A DNA stretch of 63,608 nucleotides from positions 1 through 63,608 of the forward strand of contig SLRT01000018.1 in NCBI GenBank assembly GCA_007130825.1. The letters run 5' to 3'. Made by a program: the position numbers and the translations under genes. Origin of the DNA: Syntrophomonadaceae bacterium. GTDB lineage: Bacteria > Bacillota > Dethiobacteria > DTU022. The notes beneath the pieces were generated by a model. It was not told the DNA's origin, did not search any database, and saw nothing but the letters and a program-made list of their open reading frames with translations. Below are positions 3,202-62,728 of this stretch, in pieces. The stretch's first letter is position 1; every line of letters begins with the position of its first letter.

Positions 3202-4341
3202 GTGTTAAAGTTGCAGACAACTCACAATATAATATTCGAAGATTCGAGAAGAATCGGCGCTTTAGATGATCAAAGCATTGATCTGGTTGTCACTTCACCA
3301 CCTTACCCGATGATAGAGATGTGGGATGATCAATTTACGAAAATGAATCCTGATGCCGGCATTTATCTTAAAAACGGTAGCTATGGAAAAGCATTTCAAT
3401 CAATGCATGCAATTCTGGATGAGGTCTGGTGTGAATTATATCGCGTGATGAAAGTCGGTGCAGTGGCCTGTATAAATATTGGCGATGCCACGCGTACTAT
3501 CAACAATCGTTTTCAATTATTTGCCAACCATTCCCGCATACAAAACAGGTTTTTTGAGCTTGGCTTTGATGTCCTGCCCCTTATTTTGTGGCGTAAACAG
3601 ACCAACGCTCCCAATAAATTTATGGGTTCGGGCATGCTGCCGGCGGGTGCTTACGTAACTCTTGAACATGAATATATACTGATTTTCAGAAAAGGTCCCA
3701 AACGAAAGTTTTCAACGGCTGAAGAGAAGCATAAGCGGATGCTGAGCAGTTTCTTCTGGGAAGAAAGGAACCTTTGGTTCTCCGATCTTTGGGATTTCAA
3801 GGGAGCCAGGCAGGAAACGAACAATTGTCAATTACGCAACAGGAGCGGAGCTTTTCCTTTAGAGCTGCCCTTTAGGCTGATCAACATGTATTCAGTCTTT
3901 GGAGATACGGTACTTGATCCTTTTATCGGCACCGGAACGACAGCCATGGCGGCTATGGCTGCCGGAAGAAATAGCACTGGCTGTGAAATAGACCCCGGTT
4001 TTTTTGAACCGGTTAAAAAAAGAATTACCGGAGATCCGCATGTGCTAAACAACTATAACCTAAAAAGAATAAAAAATCATCTTGAATTTGTCCGGAACTA
4101 TAACGGGATAAAAGGTGAATTAAAGCACACCAACAGCTATTTTGGTTTTCCGGTAATGACCGGGCAGGAAAAAGAATTAAAGTTAGCTTTTGTCAGAACA
4201 GTGGAAGAGCAGGGGGATAATTGTTTTAAGGTCACATATTTTAGTGATCAATATATACAAAGCATTGATCCCGGGCAGCTGAATATAGATCAGCTTACCG
4301 ATGATCACGGGATCCAGTCCACGATTCTTTTTAACGATTAG
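3202..4341 (+). CDS. Beta-class N4/N6 DNA methyltransferase (SPPY motif, likely m4C), no adjacent endonuclease
   Basis: Motif IV is DLVVTSPPYPM near the N-terminus and motif I is LDPFIGTGTTAMAA about 200 aa later; IV before I gives beta-class order. There is a C-terminal extension of about 110 aa. An alternative start is TTG 3211, after GAGGTG. Confidence 0.85.
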   Translation: MLKLQTTHNIIFEDSRRIGALDDQSIDLVVTSPPYPMIEMWDDQFTKMNPDAGIYLKNGSYGKAFQSMHAILDEVWCELYRVMKVGAVACINIGDATRTINNRFQLFANHSRIQNRFFELGFDVLPLILWRKQTNAPNKFMGSGMLPAGAYVTLEHEYILIFRKGPKRKFSTAEEKHKRMLSSFFWEERNLWFSDLWDFKGARQETNNCQLRNRSGAFPLELPFRLINMYSVFGDTVLDPFIGTGTTAMAAMAAGRNSTGCEIDPGFFEPVKKRITGDPHVLNNYNLKRIKNHLEFVRNYNGIKGELKHTNSYFGFPVMTGQEKELKLAFVRTVEEQGDNCFKVTYFSDQYIQSIDPGQLNIDQLTDDHGIQSTILFND

Positions 4342-12147: not shown

Positions 12148-12213
12148 AGAAGTTGAAGGATGAAGAAGAATGAAGAGATAAGGAAGAGATAGGGAAGAGA
12201 TAGGGAAGAGATA
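12139..12213 (+). repeat. Purine-rich tandem repeats overlapping the 3' end of the M24 gene
   Basis: GAAGGATGAAGAAG occurs twice, then four units of the 11-mer GAAGAGATA(A/G)(G/A). The stretch is almost entirely A and G on the + strand. Confidence 0.8.
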
Positions 12214-15862: not shown

Positions 15863-15940
15863 GCGCCCGTAGCTCAGCCCGGATAGAGTAACTGACTTCG
15901 AATCAGCAGGTCGCAGGTTCGAATCCTGCCGGGCGCACCA
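15863..15940 (+). tRNA. tRNA-Arg (anticodon TCG)
   Basis: Hand-folded cloverleaf. The acceptor stem is GCGCCCG/CGGGCGC. The anticodon loop is CT-TCG-AA. The T-arm is GCAGG-TTCGAAT-CCTGC. The CCA end is encoded. Confidence 0.9.
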
Positions 15941-15964
15941 GTATAAAAAAAGGGTTTTCGGGGA

Positions 15965-16288
15965 TCATGGTTCCCTGAAAACCCTTATCGGTTTATATAA
16001 AAACATCTTCAACCCGGTAGCATATATAAATAAAAATAACTCCCTTAACTCCGGTTTTAAAAATTCTTGAACCTCAAAAACATAACCTTCAGGCCCATTG
16101 ATCAAAAAAGACTTTAGTCCTATATCTTTTAAAGCCTTGATTTCCCCTATGCCGGTTCTAAATACCCGCGCCCATCTTACGTCCAGCGCTATTTCCAGCT
16201 CAAGGACTTTTTCGAAAAAGGAACAAGCAGCAGAAAAATCATCAAAATACAGGAATGTTATTTGAGATGACACCTTGCTAACACTCAT
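15965..16288 (-). pseudogene. Glyoxalase/VOC-family remnant (internally shortened)
   Basis: The N-terminus ITFLYFDDFSAACSFFEKVLELEIALDVRWARVFR and the later FLINGPEGYVFEVQEF resemble the two ends of a VOC domain. The middle is missing and an unrelated tail is appended. Confidence 0.4.
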
Positions 16289-16630
16289 AATGAGCCACCA
16301 TCCTTGTTTAAGATAAACTATACATTTTCAACAATAAGCATCCAGGGCGCCGTATATTGTAAAGTATTAAAGTGGCAAGAGAAGCAATATATTCATGTTC
16401 TAATCAATTTAATAAGATTTGTGCAAGGAATACTGAAAAATATGAAGAAATATATGCTAAACAAAAAAGAATAATGCCGGACAATATCAAATCAACCATC
16501 TCTCCACAGGATTATTTCAAAGAAAAGAAATTCATTGCAAGGACAGGTTCTTAAGGATAGGGTCTTAATGATAGTTTTCACTGCCAGATTGTCCGCTGAA
16601 CCGGCTAAAGCAAGAAAGATAGACGGTATC

Positions 16631-16772
16631 TTAAGGGCCTTACTTCCAAAATCCAGTGCATTATTAGCAGGACTTTTTTGAAAGATCCCGCAAAAGCCGG
16701 GGAACCGTGCGTTTGACAGGTGCTATTTCTAACCTCAACTTTGATGAAACTGGTTTGCCCGGGTCAGGTTTG
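16631..16772 (+). repeat. Dispersed intergenic repeat, copy A (most diverged)
   Basis: Aligns by eye with copies B-E through the blocks GACTTTTTTGA.AGATCCCGCAAA.GCC, CGTTTGACAGG, CAACTTTGATG and a CTGG/CCGG hairpin. Confidence 0.7.
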
Positions 16773-16800
16773 ATGCTTTAAATAGGAGGGGGGATGAAGT

Positions 16801-16908
16801 ATGAGTTATGTTATGACATATCTTAATGCAATAATTTTTATAGCTATAGTTTTGGGAACTTTCATCGGGGTATATTTACTTGTTCGCAGCAGTTTTGAAG
16901 ATAAATAA
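16801..16908 (+). CDS. Possible 35-aa hydrophobic peptide (MSYVMTYLNAIIFIAIVLGTFIGVYLLVRSSFEDK)
   Basis: Below the ORF-track size cut-off. AGGAGG lies 11 nt upstream. It has a single TM helix with a charged tail and sits directly downstream of repeat copy A. Confidence 0.3.
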   Translation: MSYVMTYLNAIIFIAIVLGTFIGVYLLVRSSFEDK

Positions 16909-17115
16909 ACGTTTCCGAGCCAAAATTTTAGCGTAACTGTTTTCGGTTTTCAAAGAACTTGGTAGCCGGTCAGGCCAGCCTGAGCCGATACAAGCGAATT
17001 GACAACCGCTTGATCATCAGCAGGAAAGACCTGAAATCAAATAGCAGGGCTTTTTTCTATCATAAAATAGACATATCTGCGGTGCAAGGTGCAGGTTTTT
17101 ATAATATTATTTAGG

Positions 17116-17247
17116 CCCTTAATTATGAAGTGCTGCGCATTTTTGGCAAGACTTTTTTGAGCGATCCCGCAAATGCCGATGTACACTACGTTTATTAGGG
17201 GTCATTTTGAAATCCAACTTTTATGGTACCGGCTTGTCCGGGTTAGG
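17116..17247 (+). repeat. Dispersed intergenic repeat, copy B
   Basis: CCTTAATTATGAAGTGCTGCGCATTTTTGGCAAGACTTTTTTGAGCGATCCCGCAAATGCC...ACGTTTATTAGGGGTCATTTTGAAATCCAACTTTTATGGTACCGGCTTGTCCGGGTTAGGA. Closest to copies C and E. Confidence 0.85.
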
Positions 17248-17415
17248 AGAGATCTAAAGTGTGTTCAAAGAATACTGCGAATGAAGATCTGAAGCTAAAT
17301 AAGCATAAAGCGGAAAAAGAAAAAACTGGAATAGTATACAGCTGTGCCGGTCCAAGAATAGACCCGGAAGAAAATACAAACTGTAATTATTATAAAAAGC
17401 TACATCATTATCAGG

Positions 17416-18483
17416 CTAATGTTTATCCAGATAATGCACAGGATTAACCGGAATTCCATCATGATGCACTTCATAGTGAAGATGTGTACCTGTAGTTCGG
17501 CCGGTTTTACCCATGTAACCAATTGTTTGGCCTCTTTCTACCTTTTCTCCGTGTGTAACAGCAAATCCATTCAGGTGAGCATAATAAGTTTCATAACCAT
17601 AACCGTGATCAATAATCAAAAGATTGCCCAGGCTTCCCCGGTAGCCGGAATATACAACCACTCCACCAGCGGTGGCCCGGATAGATGATCCGAACGAACC
17701 AGCTATATCGATACCGGTATGAAACTGGTAACCATCATCATATGGAATATTTCTTGTGCCAAACCCGGAGGTAATACGTCCTCGTGCAGGCCAGATGCTG
17801 GGTCTGGCTTCAACCTGCTCTATCTTGGCTTCTACTTGCTCTATATATGTCCCCACATAGGTGTCAACATCATCGAGTGTACCGGATCTTTTCAGGACGA
17901 TATCTCGCAAGATGACAAGATTATCTGCTGCCCGATCAAGCACCTCCCCTGAAACAGAACGATTTCCATATGAATTTTGATAGCTTAGAACACTGTCTTT
18001 TGCATTTAAATACGCACTGGAGGAATTTGACGGGTTAATACTGTTAAGTGAGTTATGCGTATTAGAACCGTTATATATATTATATGGATTAGCAGCAGGT
18101 CGATTATTCCCGGTATCACTTGTTTCAGGCTCAACCTCATTTATGCCCTCAAGATCTTCTAATTCATCTAATTTTTCTGTAACGCTGTCTATCAGCTTGT
18201 CTAAGTCGTCTATCTGCTGATTTACCTGTTGCGCTTCAACAGTCAGGGCGCTAATTTCTGCTTCTTGAGCCCGGGTTATCTGCCGGAGTTCCCGGGTGTT
18301 TTGTGCCTCAGCTGCAGCAACAAGATAAATGTAGCCAAGAGCAGCAACACCGGCTACACCAAGCACAAAGAAGACTACCGCTAGTTGGGTTATATGAAGT
18401 GGAAGTCTCAGGCTGAAAGTGGTCTCTTCAGAATGAGGGACGATCATAATTGTAAAACAGCGTTTTACTTTCTGTGATGTCAT
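17416..18483 (-). CDS. M23-family (LytM-type) peptidoglycan endopeptidase, membrane-anchored with a coiled coil
   Basis: The C-terminal domain reads HTGIDIAG...GNLLIIDHGYGYETYYAHL...GYMGKTGRTTGTHLHYEV. There is an N-terminal TM and a coiled coil. The likely start is ATG 18483 (MTSQKVKR); the ORF track extends to 18594. Confidence 0.85.
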   Translation of the reverse strand: MTSQKVKRCFTIMIVPHSEETTFSLRLPLHITQLAVVFFVLGVAGVAALGYIYLVAAAEAQNTRELRQITRAQEAEISALTVEAQQVNQQIDDLDKLIDSVTEKLDELEDLEGINEVEPETSDTGNNRPAANPYNIYNGSNTHNSLNSINPSNSSSAYLNAKDSVLSYQNSYGNRSVSGEVLDRAADNLVILRDIVLKRSGTLDDVDTYVGTYIEQVEAKIEQVEARPSIWPARGRITSGFGTRNIPYDDGYQFHTGIDIAGSFGSSIRATAGGVVVYSGYRGSLGNLLIIDHGYGYETYYAHLNGFAVTHGEKVERGQTIGYMGKTGRTTGTHLHYEVHHDGIPVNPVHYLDKH

Positions 18484-18935
18484 ATTCTGTATTTGCCCTT
18501 TCAGCAAAATCTTTTCTTCAAAAAAGCCGATACGAAAAGACCACCCCTTACCCCCTCCGTCCAATTTATTTGCAGCAGTTATCATTCTTGCCAATCATAC
18601 CGGGGTAAGGTCCACATGGAGCAAAAGAGGGAGGAAATTACTTGGCTCTTATTTTAACGCCTGAAAGTTACGAGAATATTACAAACAAATTACGATTTTG
18701 TTACAATCTGACTTAAAGTAAAATGAGCGATATCTGAATTATTTATTACTTTTAAGAAGGAATATTGCAAAAGTTGCAGAACAAATTAATCAAGCAAATA
18801 TTTTGTGATCTATACCTTTCAAGGAGGTGGAGAAGCTTATTGTCAAATTAGTTTGGAGCATGGGAAAGAGGCAAAGGTTCTTTTATAATTATTAATTCCT
18901 TGCATGATGGGAAAATTATTTATGAAAGGATGATC

Positions 18936-20711
18936 ATGATGGCTTGCCCAAACGAACACCAAGACAATGACAAACAACAAGATAGCAATGCACTGGAAGC
19001 TGATGCTCAAACAGGTTTAGGGGGCAGAATAAAAATACTGTCAAGCAGTTTGAAAAATAATAAATTCAAGCTTTTGGGAGCAGTAATAGCTGCGCTGCTT
19101 GTCCTGCTGGTAATTGTATATTTAGTTTATCCCCGGCCGGACTTTGAAGTAAAAGCTTTCGCTATGCCTGATGAAGTTGTATCCGGTGATGAAATGGTGA
19201 TTACCGCAGATGTGGAAAATATCGGCCGCGCCCGCGGAGCATACAGCGTAACTTTGTTTTTCGATGACGATGAAGTGGAAGTAACCGATATTATGCTGGA
19301 TGCCGGGGGAAAAGACAGTTTGGAGTTTAGCGTTCCCGTCGATTATTCTCCGGGAACCTACCCGGTTTATTTGGGGCTGGGTCCTGAGAAAGACTATTTC
19401 GAAGAATTGGCGAGCTCGGTAGAAGTTTTAAACCCGTTTACTGTGGAAGGCTTTGAAGTGCCTGAAGAAGTGTTTTACGGGGAGGATTTGTTAATTGCCA
19501 TTGGTGTTGAAAATATCAGTTCCTCTCAAGCTCCATACAGTGTAACTTTATTTGTTGATGACAATGAAGTGGAAGCAACCGATATCATGCTGGACGCCGG
19601 GGAAAAAGAAGTGTTGGAGTTTAGCGTTCCCGTCGATTATTCTCCGGGAACCTACCCGGTCCACCTCGGTTTGGGTCCTGAAAAGGATTATTGTGAAGAT
19701 CTGGCGAGTTCGCTGGAAGTCTTGAATCCTTATGTTGTGGAAGATTTTGATGTCCCGGAAGAAATTGCTTACGGGGCCAATTTGTTAATTAGCGCCGCTG
19801 TTGAAAATATAAGCGCTACAGAAACGCCATATAATGCCACCCTGTTTATTGATGGCGATGAGGTGGAAACAAAGGAGATCATGCTGGGCGGCGGCGAAAA
19901 AGAGGTTTTGGAGTTCAGTACCCCTGTCGATTATTCATCGGGTAGTTACCCGGTTGCCCTGGAGCTGGGTCCGGAAGAGACCAGTTTTGAAAAACTGGAG
20001 GGTTCATTGCAGGTTTATCGGCCGGCTGAATTTGTGGTAGAAAATTTAAGCCTTACTTCCCGGACGGTAGATGTCGGTGACGATGTAGTGGCAAGGGTTT
20101 CTGTAACCAATGTTGGAGATGTGCAGGGCAGCCATACGGTTTCCCTGACGCTAAACGGAACAGTCATCGACAGTCAAGAGGTCTCCCTTGACGGGGGAAG
20201 CCAAACAGAGTTGTCTTTTCCGCTCACCATCAATAATCCGGGCAGCCATACAGTGGCGGTAGGAGGTTTAAATACAAGCGTAACTGCATATCAAATTGAA
20301 CGTCCGGCTAATGGGACCGTTTTGGTCAATAAAATATCCGGCGGAGACGGGGAATTAAAAATTACCAATAACCGTTCAGTAGACAGCCTTGTTGTTCTTT
20401 CTGACCCCGGCAAGCCGAAAGAGCCCCTGATGGCTGTTTATCTCCGGGCAGCAAGCTCAACAACTGTCCGTTCCATCCGTGATGGCACCTATGAAATATA
20501 TTATAGTTTTGGATCGCAGTGGGATGCTCATTCGAGAAAATTTACGCAAAATGCGGAATATGGCCGGTTTGAAGAAGAAAAAAAGTTTGAAACCACCCGC
20601 CGTGCCGACTACATCGAGTATTCAATATGGGAGTTGGAATTTTATGTTTTAGATGCTGATATGCCTGCGCGCACTCGAACAATACCTGCCGACCAGTTCC
20701 CTTCCTGGTAG
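18936..20711 (+). CDS. Membrane-anchored, acidic CARDB-like repeat protein
   Basis: N-terminal TM (LLGAVIAALLVLLVIVYLVY), three near-identical domains of about 98 aa, one diverged CARDB-like domain (VSVTNVGDVQGSHTVSLTLNG) and an unrecognised C-terminal domain of about 140 aa. The ORF track starts at 18900. Confidence 0.8.
   Translation: MMACPNEHQDNDKQQDSNALEADAQTGLGGRIKILSSSLKNNKFKLLGAVIAALLVLLVIVYLVYPRPDFEVKAFAMPDEVVSGDEMVITADVENIGRARGAYSVTLFFDDDEVEVTDIMLDAGGKDSLEFSVPVDYSPGTYPVYLGLGPEKDYFEELASSVEVLNPFTVEGFEVPEEVFYGEDLLIAIGVENISSSQAPYSVTLFVDDNEVEATDIMLDAGEKEVLEFSVPVDYSPGTYPVHLGLGPEKDYCEDLASSLEVLNPYVVEDFDVPEEIAYGANLLISAAVENISATETPYNATLFIDGDEVETKEIMLGGGEKEVLEFSTPVDYSSGSYPVALELGPEETSFEKLEGSLQVYRPAEFVVENLSLTSRTVDVGDDVVARVSVTNVGDVQGSHTVSLTLNGTVIDSQEVSLDGGSQTELSFPLTINNPGSHTVAVGGLNTSVTAYQIERPANGTVLVNKISGGDGELKITNNRSVDSLVVLSDPGKPKEPLMAVYLRAASSTTVRSIRDGTYEIYYSFGSQWDAHSRKFTQNAEYGRFEEEKKFETTRRADYIEYSIWELEFYVLDADMPARTRTIPADQFPSW
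19137..20024 (+). repeat. Three tandem in-frame repeats of about 294-300 nt inside the CARDB-like gene
   Basis: Repeat units are 19137-19436, 19437-19730 and 19731-20024. Units 1 and 2 share a long identical run (TTGGAGTTTAGCGTTCCCGTCGATTATTCTCCGGGAACCTACCCGGT). Confidence 0.85.
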
Positions 20712-20721
20712 CTATTTTAGA

Positions 20722-20853
20722 TCCTTAAGCCTGAAGAGCTGCGCATTTTTGGCCGGGCTTTTTTGAGCGAACCCGCTAACGCACATGTAGATAACGTTTA
20801 GCAGGGGTCATTTTCAAATCCAACTTGATGGCAACGGTTTGTCCAGGTTAGGA
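20722..20853 (+). repeat. Dispersed intergenic repeat, copy C
   Basis: TCCTTAAGCCTGAAGAGCTGCGCATTTTTGGCCGGGCTTTTTTGAGCGAACCCGCTAACGC...ACGTTTAGCAGGGGTCATTTTCAAATCCAACTTGATGG...GTCCAGGTTAGGA. It starts 11 nt after the CARDB gene stop codon. Confidence 0.85.
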
Positions 20854-31831: not shown

Positions 31832-31960
31832 ATCCTGCCCTGGACAGGATAGCGTCATAAAGTTGGGTTTTAAGTGACCCCCTGTAAACATAGCATAGAC
31901 CGGTGTTTGCCGGATCACTAAAAATTCTTGCCAAAATGGCGCAGCACATTAGAATTAAGG
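31832..31960 (-). repeat. Dispersed intergenic repeat, copy E (reverse orientation)
   Basis: The reverse complement reads CCTTAATTCTAATGTGCTGCGCCATTTTGGCAAGAATTTTTAGTGATCCGGCAAACACC...GTTTACAGGGGGTCACTTAAAACCCAACTTTATGACGCTATCCTGTCCAGGGCAGGATA, collinear with copy B. Confidence 0.85.
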
Positions 31961-32011
31961 ACGCAATTAAACGGGCTTTATTCAAGCGGGATTGCATAAA
32001 CCGGCCTGTTC

Positions 32012-32424
32012 CTATTCACCGATTAGTTTGATGATCACCCTTTTTTTGCGCTTATCATCGAACTCGGCATAAAAGACCTGCTGCCAGGGTCCGAAATCGA
32101 GTTTTCTTTCGGTAATTGGGACTAATACCTGGTGACCGACAAGCATATTTTTCAGGTGGGCATCACCGTTATCTTCACCGGTACGGTGGTGGTTGTAGTC
32201 TGCGCGGTAAGGGGCCAGCTTTTCCAGCATCTGATCGATATCTTGAATTAATCCCGATTCGTTGTCGTTAATGTAGATCCCGGCGGTTAAGTGCATAGCC
32301 GATACCATGGCAAAACCTTCCCTGAGGCCGCTTTCCCTGAGCGCTTTTTCTACCTCCCCGGTTATATTATATACTCGCGCCGTTTTTCGGTATTAAAAGT
32401 AAGGTAAGTAGTATGCGATTGCAT
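32012..32424 (-). pseudogene. YjbQ/UPF0047-family (secondary thiamine-phosphate synthase) gene with a 1-nt frameshift
   Basis: The ATG at 32424 gives [19 protein letters not shown] and then a stop. Shifting one base continues [40 protein letters not shown]...RVIIKLIGE, which is the full-length family sequence. The span is 413 nt, one short of a multiple of three. Confidence 0.75.
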
Positions 32425-32647
32425 AAAATCATTCCCTTCCGGCTTAAATTAATGGCCCCGGTTTTTCTTCTTTACCGGCGGGTTAAAAACCTTTCTGGTA
32501 AATTAAAAAACTGGTATGATCAAAGCAGCCGTTGATCTGTGTATAAGCTTCGCAGTATTAGTTTGATCTGCTTCAGGAGGGACCAGGAAGAAGGGGTTGA
32601 AGACCAGCTAGATCCACATACGGCAGGCAAAAAGGGGGGTAAGGAGA

Positions 32648-36823: not shown

Positions 36824-37926
36824 ATGCAGGTAGTAAAAACCTCTTGTCCCTTGGATTGTTGGGATCAGTGTGCTTTAGTGGTTACCGAAAACAAGGGGAA
36901 AATTATTTCTATTGAGCCCGATCCGAGCCAACCGGTGACCGCCGAAATGATCTGCAGTAAGGGCAAGCGTCACCTGGAGCGGGTTAATCACCCTCAGCGT
37001 TTACGCTATCCCTTGCTAAAAAAGGGTGGTTTATTTAAACAGGTTAGCTGGACCGAGGCCCTGCAGGTAATGGCTGAAAAAATTGATCAGGGGCTAAAGA
37101 AGGATGGCCCCCTTTCACTGATGCATTTTTATGACGGTGCTTACAACGGACTGATAAAAAATATTGAATCCCGCTTTTTCAGCGCCCTGGGGGGGGCTCC
37201 ACTGTGCACCGGGGCAGCCTTTGTTGGGGGGCGGGCCTGGCTGCCCAGTACTATGATTTTGGATCAGTTATCGCTCATCCCTATGATGATCATCTCAACT
37301 CGCGATTGATCATCATTTGGGGGGCGAAATCCGGCCAATACTTCTGTTAACCTCCTGTCCTTTATCCGCAAGGCCCGTCAAAAAGGGGCCCGAATAATTT
37401 TAATTGATCCGGTTCAAACTGCGACATCCGCCCAGGCTGATCAGTATATCAGGGTCAGACCGGGCACCGACGGTGCGCTGGCCCTGGCTCTGGGCCGGGT
37501 AATTATCGATAATAATCTAACCGATACCGGAGTTATCGAAAATCACAGCAGTGGGTTCAGGCAGTTTGCAGATCTATGTGAAAAGTATACCCCGGAAAAT
37601 GTGAGCGGATTGACCGGGATTCGATTCATTCTACACACAGGTTGCCTCACCAGGGGAAATTACCGGAAGCCTATATTCATCCGCTTACAGCAGAAAAAGA
37701 GAACCTGAGCGATGGGCGTCGTATCCGGATATTTTCCAAAAGGGGCAGTATTGAAGCCGGTGTGTCGGTCAATGATCGGATTCCCCCGGAAACGGTCATG
37801 GTATATGAAGGCTGGTGGCATGCTTCCGGGACGGCAGTCAACAACCTTACGTCAGACTGCCTGACAGATATGGGCAATCAGGCAGCATATTATGACTGTA
37901 TGTGCCGAATCGATCCCCTGGATTAA
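36824..37926 (+). pseudogene. Molybdopterin (bis-MGD) oxidoreductase, degraded by at least two frameshifts and an internal deletion
   Basis: The N-terminal 4Fe-4S motif is CPLDCWDQC...C. The frame is lost in an 8-G run (37189-37196), after which the sequence continues GGSTVHRGSLCWGAGLAAQYYDFG. It is lost again at GCGAAATCC (about 37327). About 300 codons are missing before the C-terminal domain (LPEAYIHPLTAEKENLSDGRRIRIFSKRGSIEAGV...). Confidence 0.75.
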
Positions 37927-38024
37927 TTAACAACCACGGCTTTTTAAAACAAATCCAGACTGTACTGTTATTGAGTAACAGCTTTATTGTTATCCTGCGC
38001 TCAGCAGGAAATGGTTTTAATTGA

Positions 38025-38213
38025 TTATTGTTTGTTAGGAAACCTCAGTATTATAACTGCTGCCAGGACAAAAATTACCCCGACATACTGCACGGGAGCC
38101 AGCTTTTCTCCAAGGAGGATAAAAGCCGGCAGTATTGCCGCTACCGGTTCTATTGCCACGGTAATACTGGCTTTGCCTGCTTCCAGGTAGCTCAAGCCGG
38201 AAATATAGACCAT
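38025..38213 (-). pseudogene. C-terminal remnant of an EamA/DMT-family transporter
   Basis: Only about 60 aa remain (ASITVAIEPVAAILPAFILLGEKLAPVQYVGVIFVLAAVIIL), matching the last two helices of an EamA domain. There is no upstream coding continuation. Confidence 0.5.
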
Positions 38214-38413
38214 TATTTTGATTCAGCTGATTTTTATGGTAGTATAAAATTAAGGTGTTTATCGTCACAGCAATTGTCAATCGCTATAGTTTTTATACTT
38301 ATTTGATCAAGAAATACAATAAGTCCTTGTTTGCATGCTGTAAGTACTGGTACAAAGCGGAACTGGTAAGCGCTACCGGAGCGTTCATCTGAAAATTCTC
38401 CCGCTCCTTAAAT

Positions 38414-40894
38414 TTGTGGTTCCGTATTCAAAAGGAAGGTTTGTTTGTTCTGTATATTATAATAGCTGTCATTTTAGGCTTAATTATCATCTGGCTTTTT
38501 TACAGCAGACAACTGCAAAATTTGGTCCGCCCGGTTAATTTTTATGCTCAATGTTCCGGTGCGCCGAATTATGCTGCCGGTATCACCAGTGGCTCCCCCT
38601 TAAGTGATTTGGGCAGCCATTGCGGCTTTAAAGCTGTGCCGGGGGGAAAAGCGGCTGCCGGCAGCGCTCTTTTTGCCACAGTGGCTTCATTTGGGGCGGG
38701 ACGGCTGTACGATTTTGCTGCCTGCCTCTATGTCAATGACGGCAGTATTTATTTTAAGTCTCCGCAGTCCAGGAAGGTTTATTTTGAGCCCTACTGTATT
38801 GAAGAACAAGCCCGCGAAGGCAACTTTAAACTATGCAGCCGGCTCTATTTTATTCAGTATAACCTGGCCGTGTTGGAAACTGAGTGGGAAGTGACCGGAG
38901 AAACTGCCAGGGTGAGGCCAACCTGTTTTCTGATGCCGTTTCGTGGCCGTGACCTGGAGAACCCTTACCCCCATTTTAAAGGCTTTACTTTTTTCAAGGA
39001 AAGGGGTAACGGGCTGCAGTTATCCAGTCATCACCGTTTGCCCGGCCTGAAGATGCATGCTTATTTCCTGCCCTCGGACGGTCAGTATGGCGGTAAAAAA
39101 GAGTTAAATGGACCCTGGACAGATTTGCGACCGGGCCAAAAAATGAGCTGGTCCGTGATTATTTCTTTTTCGGCAGACGGAGATCATAAGGTTGTTCAGC
39201 GAGCCGAACGGGCTCTTCGAAACCTGGATACCCTGAAGAAAGGCGCTGAAAAGCGCTGGTCCCGTTTTGAACAAAAGTTACCCGTGCCTTATGAGACCAA
39301 TAAAGAATCTACACAGGTAACTCTGGAACTTGCGGCCTGGGCCCTGCAGAACAGCCTTTATTATCCCCGGGCTAAAATGCAGCGGTGGGGATCAGTGCCT
39401 GCGAAGGTTTACTTTCCTTTTTTCTGGGGTTGGGACACTCCGCAGCATGTGCTGGGCTTGAGTGAATGGAATCCCCAAAAAGCGGGCGATGTCTTACTGA
39501 CCCAGCTGGATGGAAATAATTTTGCTCCCGACAAGGCCCGGTTTAAATTAAAAATCAAGGGAATAACTATAGTGTCCGGATCTCAGCGCAACCTGATTCC
39601 GAGTAAGCTAAACGACTATTTACGCGGAGTTCTTGACTTTTATTCTCAGCCTCCGCTGCAGTCGTGGGCTGCAGTACGCGTTTACGAACGACTTACACGT
39701 TCGGAAGAAAAAATGCAGTTTCTAGATCAGGCTTTACCTCTTCTTAAAGCTAACTTGCGCTGGTGGGAAGAAAGCAGGAGGCTGAAAAATGGCTTATTCT
39801 CATACTTAAATGGTTTGGAATCAGGCCTTGATGACAGCCCCCGGTTTTATCCGCCAAGCTTTTTGCCCAGCTTTATCATTGGCCTGTTTCCCCGTTTTTT
39901 TTCGGCAATTGATCTTAACTGCTGGATTTTCCAGTCGTACATGAACACTTCTTACCTGTGCCGGAAGGCTGGTTTGGAAAAAGATGCAGATGATTACCAG
40001 GGTCGTGGCAGTGAACTGAAAGAAAGGATCGATGAAGAGCTGTGGTCTTCAGAGCATGAAGCCTGGTTGGATCGTCGCAATGGGAAATTCATCGAGGTAA
40101 TTACTCCCACGGTCTGGTGGCCTGCATTTGTCGGGGCCGGTTCCAGCCTGGGGAAAATACACACCGTGATTAAAAAATACCTGTTGAATCCAGATAAATT
40201 CTGGGGCCAGCATGGTATACCGAGCGTGGCTTTCGATGATAAGTCTTACAACAGCCGCAAAGACGGCTATTACTGGCGCGGGCAGATTTGGATGATTAAT
40301 AACTATGCCGCCCTGGAAGTGCTGTACCGCTTTGGCTATAGTAATGAAGCGGCAGAACTGCATAAACGGGTTATACGGACTCTTTATAATTCCAAAGGCC
40401 TTTATGAAATCTACAACGCCAGGACCGGTGCTGTGGGCTGGAGTTCACGCGGTCCCGGCGATCCTGCCGTTATGCAGTTTGGTATGACATCGGCCGGGGC
40501 TACACAAATTATTTTCTGCAGGTATCAGCATTTCAGGTATATATTTCCTGAAACTACTGAGCTATGCGGTCATATTCAGTGGGCGACAACCTTTGATCAG
40601 ATGCCGCTCTTATCGCCGCCAAGCGTCGAAGAATCTCCGCAAACCGCAATTTTACATGTAAATGTTACTGGAGAGCATGCTTACAAAGTGCCAAAGCTGA
40701 TCTTGAAGAGCTGCGACGGCAGATCGCTGCTTGAATCATCACTTTTAAGCCTTCGTTTCGAGAACCCGGCCGGCTGTATTGATCAAGATAGTTCAGTTAT
40801 ATTTACCTGGCAGGGTGAAAGTTTTCAGGTGCGGTTGGATAACAACTATGTGCTAAGGCCTTTTGCCCGGACCGGGAAGCTTAGTTCTGCCTGA
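38414..40894 (+). CDS. Membrane-anchored (alpha/alpha)6-barrel glycoside hydrolase (GH63 / MGH1- or trehalase-like)
   Basis: 826 aa with an N-terminal TM. FFWGWDTPQH, GLESGLDDSPRF and YYWRGQIWMINNY resemble the catalytic-barrel motifs of GH63/GH37-type enzymes. The family assignment is approximate. Confidence 0.65.
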   Translation: MWFRIQKEGLFVLYIIIAVILGLIIIWLFYSRQLQNLVRPVNFYAQCSGAPNYAAGITSGSPLSDLGSHCGFKAVPGGKAAAGSALFATVASFGAGRLYDFAACLYVNDGSIYFKSPQSRKVYFEPYCIEEQAREGNFKLCSRLYFIQYNLAVLETEWEVTGETARVRPTCFLMPFRGRDLENPYPHFKGFTFFKERGNGLQLSSHHRLPGLKMHAYFLPSDGQYGGKKELNGPWTDLRPGQKMSWSVIISFSADGDHKVVQRAERALRNLDTLKKGAEKRWSRFEQKLPVPYETNKESTQVTLELAAWALQNSLYYPRAKMQRWGSVPAKVYFPFFWGWDTPQHVLGLSEWNPQKAGDVLLTQLDGNNFAPDKARFKLKIKGITIVSGSQRNLIPSKLNDYLRGVLDFYSQPPLQSWAAVRVYERLTRSEEKMQFLDQALPLLKANLRWWEESRRLKNGLFSYLNGLESGLDDSPRFYPPSFLPSFIIGLFPRFFSAIDLNCWIFQSYMNTSYLCRKAGLEKDADDYQGRGSELKERIDEELWSSEHEAWLDRRNGKFIEVITPTVWWPAFVGAGSSLGKIHTVIKKYLLNPDKFWGQHGIPSVAFDDKSYNSRKDGYYWRGQIWMINNYAALEVLYRFGYSNEAAELHKRVIRTLYNSKGLYEIYNARTGAVGWSSRGPGDPAVMQFGMTSAGATQIIFCRYQHFRYIFPETTELCGHIQWATTFDQMPLLSPPSVEESPQTAILHVNVTGEHAYKVPKLILKSCDGRSLLESSLLSLRFENPAGCIDQDSSVIFTWQGESFQVRLDNNYVLRPFARTGKLSSA

Positions 40895-48059: not shown

Positions 48060-48578
48060 ATGGGTTTGGAAGGAAAACACCTAGCTGTTTTACTGGAGGA
48101 ACTTTATGAAGATCCAGAGTTTTGGTACCCATATTATCGTTTCCAGGAGGCCGGTGCCAGGGTAACCGCAGTGGCCCCGAAAGTTAAGGAGTATAAAAGC
48201 AAACATGGGTTTCCAGCTACGGCCGATCTGGCTGCAGTTGATGCTGAAGCAGAAAACTTTGATGCGGTAATAATTCCCGGCGGTTATTCACCGGACCACA
48301 TGCGCCGTTCGCGCGAACTGGTAGACTTTTTCAAACAAGCCTATGAACAGGGCAAAATAATCGCCGCCATGTGCCATGGCCCCTGGATGCTGGCATCAAT
48401 TGGGGCGATAAAAAATCGCAAAGTAACCGCGTTTTTCTCGATCAAGGATGATTTAATCAATGCCGGTGCAAATTTTGTCGATGAGGAAGTTGTCCGTGAC
48501 GGCAGTATCATTACTTCTCGCACACCTAAAGATTTGCCCGCCTTTTGCCGGGAGATAATTAAAGCTTTAAGCATTTAA
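48060..48578 (+). CDS. DJ-1/PfpI-family protein (PfpI-type intracellular protease / deglycase)
   Basis: 172 aa. DAVIIPGG and the nucleophile elbow AAMCHGPW. Confidence 0.9.
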   Translation: MGLEGKHLAVLLEELYEDPEFWYPYYRFQEAGARVTAVAPKVKEYKSKHGFPATADLAAVDAEAENFDAVIIPGGYSPDHMRRSRELVDFFKQAYEQGKIIAAMCHGPWMLASIGAIKNRKVTAFFSIKDDLINAGANFVDEEVVRDGSIITSRTPKDLPAFCREIIKALSI

Positions 48579-48580
48579 AT

Positions 48581-48702
48581 TTAAGTGCTGCGCATATTTG
48601 GCAAGATTTTTTAGCGATTCCGACAACGCCTTTTGTAAGCCATGTTTGGAAAAGGTCATTTGCAGTCCAACTTTATGGCACTGGCCTGTTCAGCCGGGAC
48701 AG
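48581..48702 (+). repeat. Dispersed intergenic repeat, copy D
   Basis: TTAAGTGCTGCGCATATTTGGCAAGATTTTTTAGCGATTCCGACAACGCC...AAAAGGTCATTTGCAGTCCAACTTTATGGCACTGGCCTGTTCAGCCGGG. It begins 3 nt after the PfpI-family stop codon. Confidence 0.8.
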
Positions 48703-62467: not shown

Positions 62468-62540
62468 AACCGGCTTCAGGTGCATTTACAAGCATGTAAC
62501 TGAATGCTATAATATCAGCAAGTAATTAAATAATTGTAGC

Positions 62541-62690
62541 TTGTCAGGTGTCGATTGACTGAAAAGGGAAGCCGGTGAAAATCCGGCGCGGTCCCGCCAC
62601 TGTAAGTGGGAGTTGCCTCCTTGAAACCACTGGTAAAAACCGGGAAGGCAGGGGGTGCAGTGAACACGAGCCAGGAGACCTGCCTGACAG
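62541..62690 (+). promoter_or_regulatory. Cobalamin (B12) riboswitch aptamer
   Basis: AAAAGGGAAGCCGGTGAAAATCCGGCGCGGTCCCGCCACTGT and the B12 box GAGCCAGGAGACCTGCC. P1 pairs TTGTCAGG with CCTGACAG. Confidence 0.85.
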
Positions 62691-62728
62691 AGCGCTTAAC
62701 CCCTTCGGGTGAAAGGGTAAGGCGGGGT

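Follow-up and report, generated by a model that had tools for sequence, protein, structure and literature searches.

A short TTAGG-flanked intergenic repeat without inverted ends, probably a non-autonomous mobile element, in a lineage of uncultured soda-lake Bacillota

Why should the same non-coding block of about 137 nt turn up at several unrelated intergenic places along one bacterial contig? The window analysed here, i.e. the whole stretch of 63,608 nt, had been given a preliminary description that reported five collinear copies of an unclassified dispersed intergenic repeat and hesitated between a MITE-like element, a 3'-UTR or sRNA module and a protein-binding site. An nhmmer profile built from the five intervals of that description and run on the 63.6-kb window matched exactly five places (E = 1.7e-40 to 2.6e-30, the next match at E = 0.95), and an independent repeat search recovered the same family (families D2–D4, inverted pairs I1/I2). 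The shared sequence blocks first seen by eye are present in the aligned copies, and the original coordinates hold to within a few bases, except that copy D starts ~14 nt earlier. With its flanking 5-mers the repeat measures ~137 nt, around a core of ~127 bp that runs from CCCTTAA to TCCGGG. Copies occur on either strand, amid housekeeping genes and at distances of 0.5 to 28 kb from one another, as follows.

16632–16768, + strand: copy A (nhmmer E = 4.8e-34), 71% identity to the consensus
17111–17247, + strand: copy B, 94% identity to the consensus, the closest of all, with perfect TTAGG repeats
17111–17115, + strand: left TTAGG of copy B, the sole TTAGG at the empty site of the sister genome
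17116–17242, + strand: core of copy B, 127 bp, from CCCTTAATT to GTCCGGG, the segment found only in contig L037 when compared with contig L038
17226–17238, + strand: subterminal hairpin of copy B, CCGG-CTTGT-CCGG, ending 4 nt before the end of the core
17243–17247, + strand: right TTAGG of copy B, which completes the 5-bp direct repeat
20717–20852, + strand: copy C (nhmmer E = 1.5e-38), 86% identity to the consensus
31834–31966, − strand: copy E (nhmmer E = 2.2e-34), 76% identity to the consensus, 5-mers decayed
48567–48699, + strand: copy D (nhmmer E = 2.6e-30), 75% identity to the consensus

Nine further copies or fragments were found in soda-lake and Mono Lake metagenome contigs. Within the family some copies are truncated and some strongly diverged; the alignment used throughout comprises 13 full copies, which is a small sample. 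The edges are sharp: mean pairwise identity drops to background (~0.25) some 7 nt ahead of the CCCTTAA block at one end and directly after the terminal GG at the other, and the flanks of the 13 full copies are unrelated. The repeat is dense where it occurs, with five copies in the 63.6 kb of the window, three in 20 kb of contig L031 and two in 8 kb of contig L015.

The term "unclassified" proved apt. At gathering thresholds, Rfam recognised only a cobalamin riboswitch and a tRNA in the window and gave no match to the repeat, a permissive Rfam scan of positions 16500–17500 returned chance-level hits only (E at least 2.7), and the plasmid, phage and viral collections held no match. A pattern scan of the GTDB representative genomes, among which the host species is absent, produced 13 matches in unrelated GC-rich taxa, none of them fitting the profile. 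A peptide profile of the antisense frame drew only two proteins, leading to one new locus (L020) and to more of contig L016. In relatives whose CarB is 75–89% identical, the regions fetched around carB contained no copy. The family is restricted to one lineage of uncultured soda-lake Bacillota, where it occupies many unrelated intergenic sites.

The most telling comparison is that of copy B with its counterpart in a sister genome. Contig L038 of a conspecific MAG, 99.7–99.96% identical, lacks copy B exactly: its empty site reads ATTATTTAGG/AGAGATC (i.e. ...TTTAGG/AGAGA), whereas the filled site in contig L037 and in the window reads ATTATTTAGG followed by 127 bp and TTAGG/AGAGATC. Inspection of the flanks for target-site duplications, which had been suggested at the outset, thus finds one TTAGG at the empty site and TTAGG on both sides of the filled one. 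Compared by blastn, L038 and L037 (MAGs GCA_003564435.1 and GCA_003553735.1, the empty and filled members of the pair) align in two abutting blocks with a 5-nt overlap, around ~127 nt present only in L037, and the ends of this indel are exactly the family boundaries, which had been derived independently from the 13 copies. The copy is also present in contig L039. Since one copy is precisely absent from a sister genome that is otherwise almost the same, the repeat is a small mobile element, and the pair shows a recent gain or loss of copy B in the wild. This is the only polymorphic site found, and it does not separate insertion from precise loss by recombination between the two TTAGGs.

Copy B is the youngest copy and an insertion polymorphism within the species, combining its high identity to the consensus with a perfect TTAGG/TTAGG. 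Copies A, D and E, at 71–76% identity and with decayed 5-mers, are in every conspecific contig checked; these older copies are fixed, and their decay is almost neutral. Copy A, the 5-mers of which have become TAAGG and TCAGG, is old. Its place is a stretch with few genes downstream of a tRNA gene, 342 nt upstream of copy B, and both L037 and L038 contain it. Copy C is flanked by TTAGA and TTAGG, starts 5 nt past the stop codon of a CARDB-domain gene (590–603 aa) and is in all conspecific contigs. Copy E sits between the convergent genes carB and yjbQ, the gap between which is 201 nt in the window and 12, 95 or 145 nt in relatives without the copy; it is fixed in contigs L047–L049. The carB–yjbQ spacer of contig L024 was considered as a shortened copy, and the resemblance is not significant. 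The 5' end of copy D overlaps the final codons, stop codon included, of a DJ-1/PfpI gene (Pfam), a terminator lies 58 nt downstream, and the copy is fixed in contigs L047–L050. A look-up of the DJ-1 protein gave no match, the allele of the window being probably unique. Several Logan contigs end inside copy C and contig L051 ends inside copy D, as expected of independent assemblies that meet a multi-copy repeat.

The repeat sits at TTAGG, with TTAGG on both sides. Besides copy B, in which both flanking 5-mers are perfect, six copies keep the TTAGG at the right end; on the left, the 5-mers of these six have degenerated or are offset in the alignment, and a conserved pentanucleotide stands directly 5' of the left end in most copies. 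The direct repeat of copy B is either a target-site duplication or a recombination core. Because nearly every copy carries an identical flanking 5-mer, a duplication at insertion is not provable, and the flanking TTAGG could instead be a conserved element end beside a preferred target, by analogy with IS200/IS605. Terminal inverted repeats are absent from all 13 copies: when the first 40 nt were aligned to the reverse complement of the last 40 nt, scores were 8–12 against shuffle means of ~10 (sd 2), and none rose above its shuffles. The two ends of the consensus share only 4 nt in this alignment, and the best self-complementary stretch is an 18-nt imperfect palindrome around GATC. Standard cut-and-paste transposase models do not fit a repeat without terminal inverted repeats. 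The early suggestion of a MITE-like element survives in part, in that the filled and empty sites are precise, but the lack of inverted ends makes it no strict MITE.

The reading that we favour, with a probability of roughly 0.8, is that the repeat is a non-autonomous, target-specific mobile DNA element without inverted ends, resembling bcr1. It is a new family of small mobile DNA element of an ordinary kind. The enzyme that moves such an element in trans would be encoded elsewhere in the genome; it would presumably be either a transposase with a 5-bp staggered cut at TTAGG or a site-specific recombinase with TTAGG as its crossover core. Recognition by this enzyme may involve a small hairpin near the 3' end, and any effects on neighbouring genes would be by-products of the landing site.

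The hairpin in question had been noted before as looking compensatory. Across the 13 copies 90% of the cells of its 4-bp stem CCGG/CCGG are paired, with varying loop sequences, and one pair covaries (C-G in five copies, U-A in five, U-G in one), which agrees with that view; on the other side, 40 of 500 column shuffles score as well, the stem is broken in copy C, and the 6-bp hairpin of copy E is a different, non-homologous one. A candidate 5' hairpin, TGC-G-CA/TG-GCA, starts ~16 nt inside the left end; it is invariant, so that covariation is uninformative about it.

No coding role is visible. Conservation had been judged to act on nucleotides and not codons, and the substitutions indeed lack a 3-nt periodicity (chi-square p = 0.15–0.63), while a 2-nt indel and several 1-nt indels break every frame, leaving none open in all copies. 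On these two grounds a protein was ruled out in the sense frame (...LRIFGKTFLSDPANA...) as well as in the antisense one (KLDFKMTPNKRSVH...). Three of four copies are in frame with the upstream gene, which is not significant (~p = 0.1). Substitutions per column are near-Poisson (variance/mean 1.15), with 31 invariant columns observed and 23.5 expected. The conserved blocks are thus largely a product of substitution scatter and weak evidence for a protein-binding or RNA function; the slight excess of invariant columns and the kept 4-bp hairpin leave room for some function at the sequence level.

As to the enzyme, the earlier remark that the window holds no transposase was borne out: in direct Pfam scans or in the Pfam matches of the fetched gene-call tables, no ORF of at least 150 aa (some are without any match) fell into a transposase or integrase family. 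Neither the window nor any fetched locus contained a transposase or recombinase for the repeat, and the ~64 kb of the window and the fetched loci showed no longer element with these ends that could be its parent. An integron attC or cassette array was rejected, with copies on both strands and 0.5–28 kb apart, not palindromic, and no integrase found by Pfam.

Two explanations specify the way in which the repeat would move. A site-specific recombinase (tyrosine, serine or of the IS110-type DEDD class) might insert and excise it, TTAGG being the core common to donor and target. The same 5-mer beside nearly every young copy, the precise gain or loss of copy B and the lack of terminal inverted repeats all suit such an enzyme, which we nevertheless consider unlikely: no recombinase gene was seen near any copy, 5 bp is very short for the core of a tyrosine recombinase, and, TTAGG being so common, the enzyme would have to rely strongly on further target features, none of which is visible: flank identity is at background beyond the 5-mer. 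The other is a miniature derivative of IS200/IS605 (PATE) of 132 nt that would insert 3' of TTAGG without duplication and end in its own TTAGG cleavage site; miniature elements of this type move as single-stranded DNA by means of a Y1 HUH transposase. On this model the subterminal hairpins at both ends would be the binding sites of the enzyme. The filled and empty sites fit insertion of a 132-nt element ending in TTAGG after a TTAGG as well as they fit a 5-bp duplication, and the absence of inverted ends, the pentanucleotide abutting the left end of most copies, a hairpin that ends 9 nt before the right TTAGG end with one compensatory change and the possible small left hairpin point the same way. 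In IS608-type elements, though, the left and right hairpins resemble each other, and the two candidates here are unrelated in sequence, the left one being invariant and hence without covariation signal. Furthermore, neither the window nor any fetched locus has a TnpA/TnpB gene, and the IS605-related RNA motifs of Rfam gave no match. We rate this derivation as distinctly unlikely.

That the repeat acts as an RNA, whether as an sRNA gene or as a 3' or 5' UTR module for stability, termination or translation with copies kept by selection, is very improbable. It draws on the position of several copies (C, D, L15b and L031c), which begin 0–20 nt past a same-strand stop codon, on the small terminal hairpin of most copies, swapped for another in copy E, and on a report that the closest analogue, bcr1, is transcribed (PMC3184786). 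Folding speaks against it, with z-scores of −1.6 to +0.7, no better than shuffles, and a minimum-energy fold that differs in each copy. The RNAalifold consensus reaches only −9 kcal/mol with no covariation term, the helices it gave with five copies were lost at 11–13 copies, and a scan of all column pairs on both strands supported no helix; by inspection, a candidate GAGCGATCCC/GGGGTCATTT helix is broken by one-sided changes in copies A, D, L15b and L14. The copies share no conserved promoter, and a clear sense-strand terminator lies within 160 nt of only 2 of the 13. Three promoter candidates were discarded: a sigma-54 type (TGGCAC-N4-TTGT/C), in which the spacing is too short by one base and GG is not conserved, a sigma-D-like GCCGAT, which is not conserved, and an antisense TTGCCA-16-CATAAT in copy B, the −10 part of which is not conserved in other copies. 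Orientation is not fixed either. Copies A and B are opposite to both neighbouring genes, and the copy of L016/L031 is antisense between two plus-strand genes, which rules out a rule that copies are always co-oriented with the upstream gene. In addition, one copy is dispensable within the species and substitutions are near-Poisson. For the 3'-UTR or sRNA module of the preliminary description there was no positive evidence, the 4-bp hairpin being the only recurring helix. Finally, the copies might be left over from ordinary segmental duplications, or be a repeated protein-binding site, with no mobility at all. In its favour, no mobilising enzyme was found and substitutions are near neutral, but all copies have the same sharp ends within unrelated flanks, near-identical copies occur in different contexts (copy B and positions 3744–3867 of L015 are 99% identical over 124 nt), and the presence/absence difference matches the ends exactly and is bounded by the 5-bp direct repeat. 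Relatives, moreover, have no copy at the site orthologous to that of copy E or elsewhere around carB in the fetched regions. We regard this explanation as extremely improbable and already close to refuted.

Returning to a non-autonomous element moved in trans, the best parallel is with the group A bcr repeats of the Bacillus cereus group, which are small, non-coding and strain-variable, carry a fixed 5-bp direct repeat and have no associated transposase, a "site-specific recombination-like mechanism" having been proposed for them (PMC3184786, PMC6542083); bcr1 is also reported to be transcribed and to form a cruciform-like RNA of two hairpins that compensatory changes maintain. Like bcr1–bcr3, the repeat is small (~137 bp, ~155 bp in bcr1), non-coding and intergenic, has many copies in a narrow Bacillota lineage and no associated transposase, is distributed differently between close strains (copy B, at 99.7–99.96% flank identity), and lies between direct repeats of an unvarying 5-bp sequence, TTTAT in bcr1 and TTAGG here. 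The flanking pentamer and the host lineage, represented by an uncultured soda-lake Bacillota MAG, differ, and in contrast to bcr1 the repeat has no stable fold beyond one 4-bp hairpin with one covarying pair. The likeness is one of described features, sequence similarity not being expected, and because the host is not a member of the B. cereus group we do not claim membership in the bcr family proper.

Other classes of small repeats share less. ERIC/IRU sequences of enterobacteria (~127 bp) are comparable in length, intergenic location and variable presence between strains. ERIC is, however, an imperfect palindrome, while the best palindrome of this repeat is only 18 nt long and imperfect, and folds of the whole element equal those of shuffles. 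With MITEs such as RUP of Streptococcus pneumoniae, Correia/nemis of Neisseria, Nezha and Chunjie it has in common a size below 200 bp, non-coding intergenic sequence, multiple dispersed copies with flanking direct repeats, restriction to a lineage, the lack of a transposase gene and some copies that overlap gene ends. MITEs, though, have terminal inverted repeats as their defining feature and form a long stem-loop (PMC3184786), whereas none of the 13 copies has terminal inverted repeats and no long hairpin is formed. PATEs and REP/RAYT systems agree with it in lacking terminal inverted repeats, in their 3' subterminal hairpin and in the fixed short sequence that abuts the left end. REPs are described as GC-rich palindromes of 20–40 bp tagged GTAG or CGTC (PMC3733652); at 127–137 bp the repeat is not palindromic, and its consensus holds no palindrome tagged GTAG or CGTC, which separates it from REPs and BIMEs. 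From PATEs it differs in its two dissimilar hairpins and in the absence of TnpA/TnpB from the window and the fetched loci.

As a small repeat without inverted ends and with a fixed 5-bp repeat, this family would be a second, unrelated example after bcr1. It is quite doubtful, though conceivable, that it is the non-autonomous partner of an undescribed kind of mobile element that has no inverted ends, recognises TTAGG and is still active in a natural population of uncultured soda-lake Bacillota; the same mechanism might also move the bcr repeats of Bacillus. If this were true, identification of the enzyme, which might be a recombinase or else a transposase of RNA-guided or HUH type, would define a new transposition system. 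The filled/empty pair provides a defined target, TTAGG, and defined ends for the hunt.

Copies D and B illustrate the remodelling of gene ends by such elements, the stop codon of the DJ-1/PfpI gene coming from copy D and copy B sitting between a TATAAT box and the ribosome-binding site of a small ORF. The recurrent 130-nt block of this lineage is best masked as a repeat and not annotated as small genes or RNAs. Gene callers place spurious ORFs on it, e.g. P0001 and P0002, and assemblies break there.

A profile built from the five intervals of the preliminary description, which had reported a dispersed five-copy repeat family, found those five places only in the 63.6-kb window (E = 1.7e-40 to 2.6e-30; best non-family match E = 0.95), and a de novo repeat search of the window recovered the family independently; the reported observation is confirmed. 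The copies are 53–81% identical to one another and stand in unrelated flanks. Across 13 full-length copies, from the window and from metagenome contigs, the edges are sharp: mean pairwise identity reaches background (~0.25) ~7 nt before the CCCTTAA block begins and directly past the terminal GG. The repeat had been called unclassified, which agrees with Rfam: at gathering thresholds the only matches in the window were a cobalamin riboswitch and a tRNA, none on the repeat, and with permissive settings the A-B region gave chance-level matches only. REP, ERIC and attC identities were also rejected.

Refined coordinates of the copies in the window, flanking 5-mers included
16632-16768, plus strand, copy A
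17111-17247, plus strand, copy B
20717-20852, plus strand, copy C
48567-48699, plus strand, copy D
31834-31966, minus strand, copy E

Conspecific contigs from other assemblies, found via the 61-aa protein encoded directly downstream of copy C, are 99.7–99.96% identical to the window. In one of them (L038, a 164-kb contig of GCA_003564435.1) copies A and C are present and copy B is absent, and the alignment blocks around the B site abut with a 5-nt overlap. The empty site reads ...TATAATATTATTTAGG|AGAGATCTAAAGTG and the filled site ...TATAATATTATTTAGG|CCCTTAATT...GTCCGGG|TTAGG|AGAGATCTAAAGTG, so that a 127-bp core (window 17116-17242) is precisely present or absent together with one TTAGG, forming a 5-bp direct repeat. 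The limits of this segment are exactly the family limits inferred from the other copies. At the empty site (L038 6300-6345) a TATAAT box precedes TTAGGAG by 6 nt, and the GTG start of a 62-aa ORF comes next. In this layout copy B would have come to lie between a probable -10 box and the ribosome-binding site; its right-hand TTAGG rebuilds the AGGAG site (window 17090-17262), and the putative promoter is displaced by 132 nt. The window itself is 99.8–99.9% identical to contig PWFD01000032.1 of GCA_003553735.1, which encodes the same CarB protein, and differs from it by an extra 11 nt at 12182-12192 (GGAAGAGATAG), one 1-nt indel and ~23 substitutions over 20 kb (10.9–31.1 kb); it is slightly closer to a JGI contig, L039, from which it differs by 7 mismatches over 14 kb.

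Copy B is the nearest to the consensus (94%) and has a perfect TTAGG on both sides; over 124 nt it matches a metagenomic copy in other flanks at 99% identity. Copies A, D and E are older, with 71–76% identity to the consensus and decayed flanking 5-mers; D and E occur in every conspecific contig examined, and A in both that cover its site. Several independent assemblies terminate inside C or D, the kind of break expected at a multi-copy repeat.

A JGI metagenome scan yielded seven true copies in six loci, whose contig names suggest soda-lake sediment samples, and a search with a spurious ORF added one more, on a contig whose name contains MLSed, which suggests Mono Lake sediment. Three copies (one full, one diverged full-length and one 39-nt 3' fragment) lie in a 20-kb piece of a 120-kb soda-lake contig (L031). 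There the fragment (-) and the diverged copy (+) stand in inverted orientation at 17137-19034, flanking a TRAM/U5 methyltransferase gene and a DUF2196 gene, with the fragment adjoining the methyltransferase start codon; this pair may be a coincidence or the leftover of a composite arrangement. Among GTDB representative genomes a pattern scan turned up chance matches only, and no match came from viral contigs, plasmids or phages. In several more distant relatives of the host, which is an uncultured Bacillota MAG (CarB of the relatives 75–89% identical), 13–23 kb around carB was examined in each, and no copy was present. At the site orthologous to copy E, the carB-yjbQ spacer is 201 nt in the window versus 12, 95 or 145 nt in relatives, where yjbQ is not absent altogether.

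As had been proposed, conservation is not codon-level: substitutions lack 3-nt periodicity (p = 0.15–0.63) and every frame is broken by one 2-nt and several 1-nt indels, and a protein-coding repeat was rejected. A stably structured RNA or palindromic element was rejected as well. Fold z-scores ranged from -1.56 to +0.69 in six sense and two antisense copies, with a predicted fold that differs from copy to copy; RNAalifold on 11 copies gave -9 kcal/mol with an essentially nil covariation term, an exhaustive column-pair scan of both strands found nothing beyond G-U-rich noise, and the repeat has no terminal inverted repeats. Only one helix recurs, a subterminal hairpin of 4 bp (CCGG-N5-CCGG) with variable loops. 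The compensatory change suggested for it holds to the extent that 90% of cells are paired and one pair covaries (C-G in 5 copies, U-A in 5), but 40/500 shuffles equal its score, copy C breaks the stem and copy E carries another hairpin in its place, and the argument for RNA structure is weak. The shared sequence blocks likewise count for little: the variance/mean of parsimony changes per column is 1.15, 31 columns are invariant where a Poisson model predicts 23.5, and the substitution pattern is close to neutral decay. As for a self-contained sRNA gene, also rejected, the copies have no conserved promoter, and a clear sense terminator follows within 160 nt in only 2/13 (D and a copy on a fetched contig, L016). 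That of D occupies the position expected for the upstream gene's own terminator, and that of L016 may belong to the adjoining rubredoxin gene. Orientation relative to neighbouring genes is not fixed: C, D, E and three copies on fetched contigs (L15a, L15b, L031c) each lie closely downstream of a co-oriented gene, the L016/L031 copy runs antisense to the plus-strand genes on either side of it, and A and B are opposite in strand to both neighbours.

We regard the repeat as a mobile element, with a probability of roughly 0.8. It would be non-autonomous. Its 127-bp core is non-coding, lacks inverted ends and lies at TTAGG, with TTAGG on both flanks; the element was lately active at one site (B), or lately lost from it, and is otherwise in neutral decay within one soda-lake Bacillota lineage. 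As neither the window nor the fetched loci were found to encode a mobilising enzyme, we infer mobilisation in trans by one encoded elsewhere; the event at B was probably insertion rather than precise excision. TTAGG could be duplicated at insertion, serve as a recombination core, or be a conserved right end beside a preferred target, as in IS200/IS605. Within that overall probability of mobility, a transposase with a 5-bp stagger comes near to even odds, and a recombination core is a good deal less probable. An IS200/IS605-type end is slightly less probable again; such a miniature element is possible but unsupported: its two candidate hairpins do not resemble one another, and neither tnpA nor tnpB was seen in the window or fetched loci.

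By description rather than sequence, the closest parallel to the repeat lies in the group A bcr repeats known from the Bacillus cereus group, which are ~155 bp long, non-coding and strain-variable, with a constant 5-bp flanking repeat (TTTAT), no known transposase and a suggested site-specific recombination-like mechanism (PMC3184786; PMC6542083). Because the likeness is one of description, host and pentamer differ (TTTAT in bcr, TTAGG here) and the RNA fold reported for bcr1 has no counterpart, we do not assign the repeat to that family. The MITE-like option raised earlier is supported in a loose sense by the precise polymorphism at B; the repeat is not a classical MITE, since these are defined by inverted ends and a long stem-loop and the repeat has neither. 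The family is new and the kind of genomic parasite known; it occurs in an uncultured lineage and offers a clean natural insertion polymorphism; more would hang on it if the mobilising enzyme proved to be of a new type.

Copies A and B lie in a gene-poor stretch (15863-17415) of ~1.5 kb without a solid gene after a tRNA gene (15863-15937). It also holds a 107-aa ORF (15965-16288, -) and two small ORFs called by NCBI, none with a Pfam match; one (16801-16908), preceded by a strong AGGAGG site, encodes a very hydrophobic 35-aa peptide, suggestive of a small membrane peptide or a type I toxin. The last codons and TAA stop of a DJ-1/PfpI gene, whose Pfam domain ends at residue 168/172, fall within the 5' end of copy D (48567-48578, GCTTTAAGCATTTAA), so the element appears to supply the end of this gene. 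Adjoining copy E, yjbQ (32012-32428, -) carries an in-frame stop close to the 5' end and is called as 98 aa versus 137 aa in all relatives, and is thus probably N-terminally truncated or decaying. A molybdopterin oxidoreductase gene (36824-38414) is a 143–161-aa stump versus 666–669 aa in relatives, and only blastn-detectable remnants of the following EamA gene are left, a sign that genes are decaying locally in this species. Three tandem 294-nt repeats (61–77% identical; 19165-20046) in a 590–603-aa CARDB-domain gene are repeated protein domains unrelated to the element. Near the window start are a dockerin type I domain protein (2174-2713) and an N6/N4 DNA methylase (3202-4341), and the full-length cobalamin riboswitch (RF00174, 121.8 bits; 62529-62701, +) lies upstream of a gene running past the window end.
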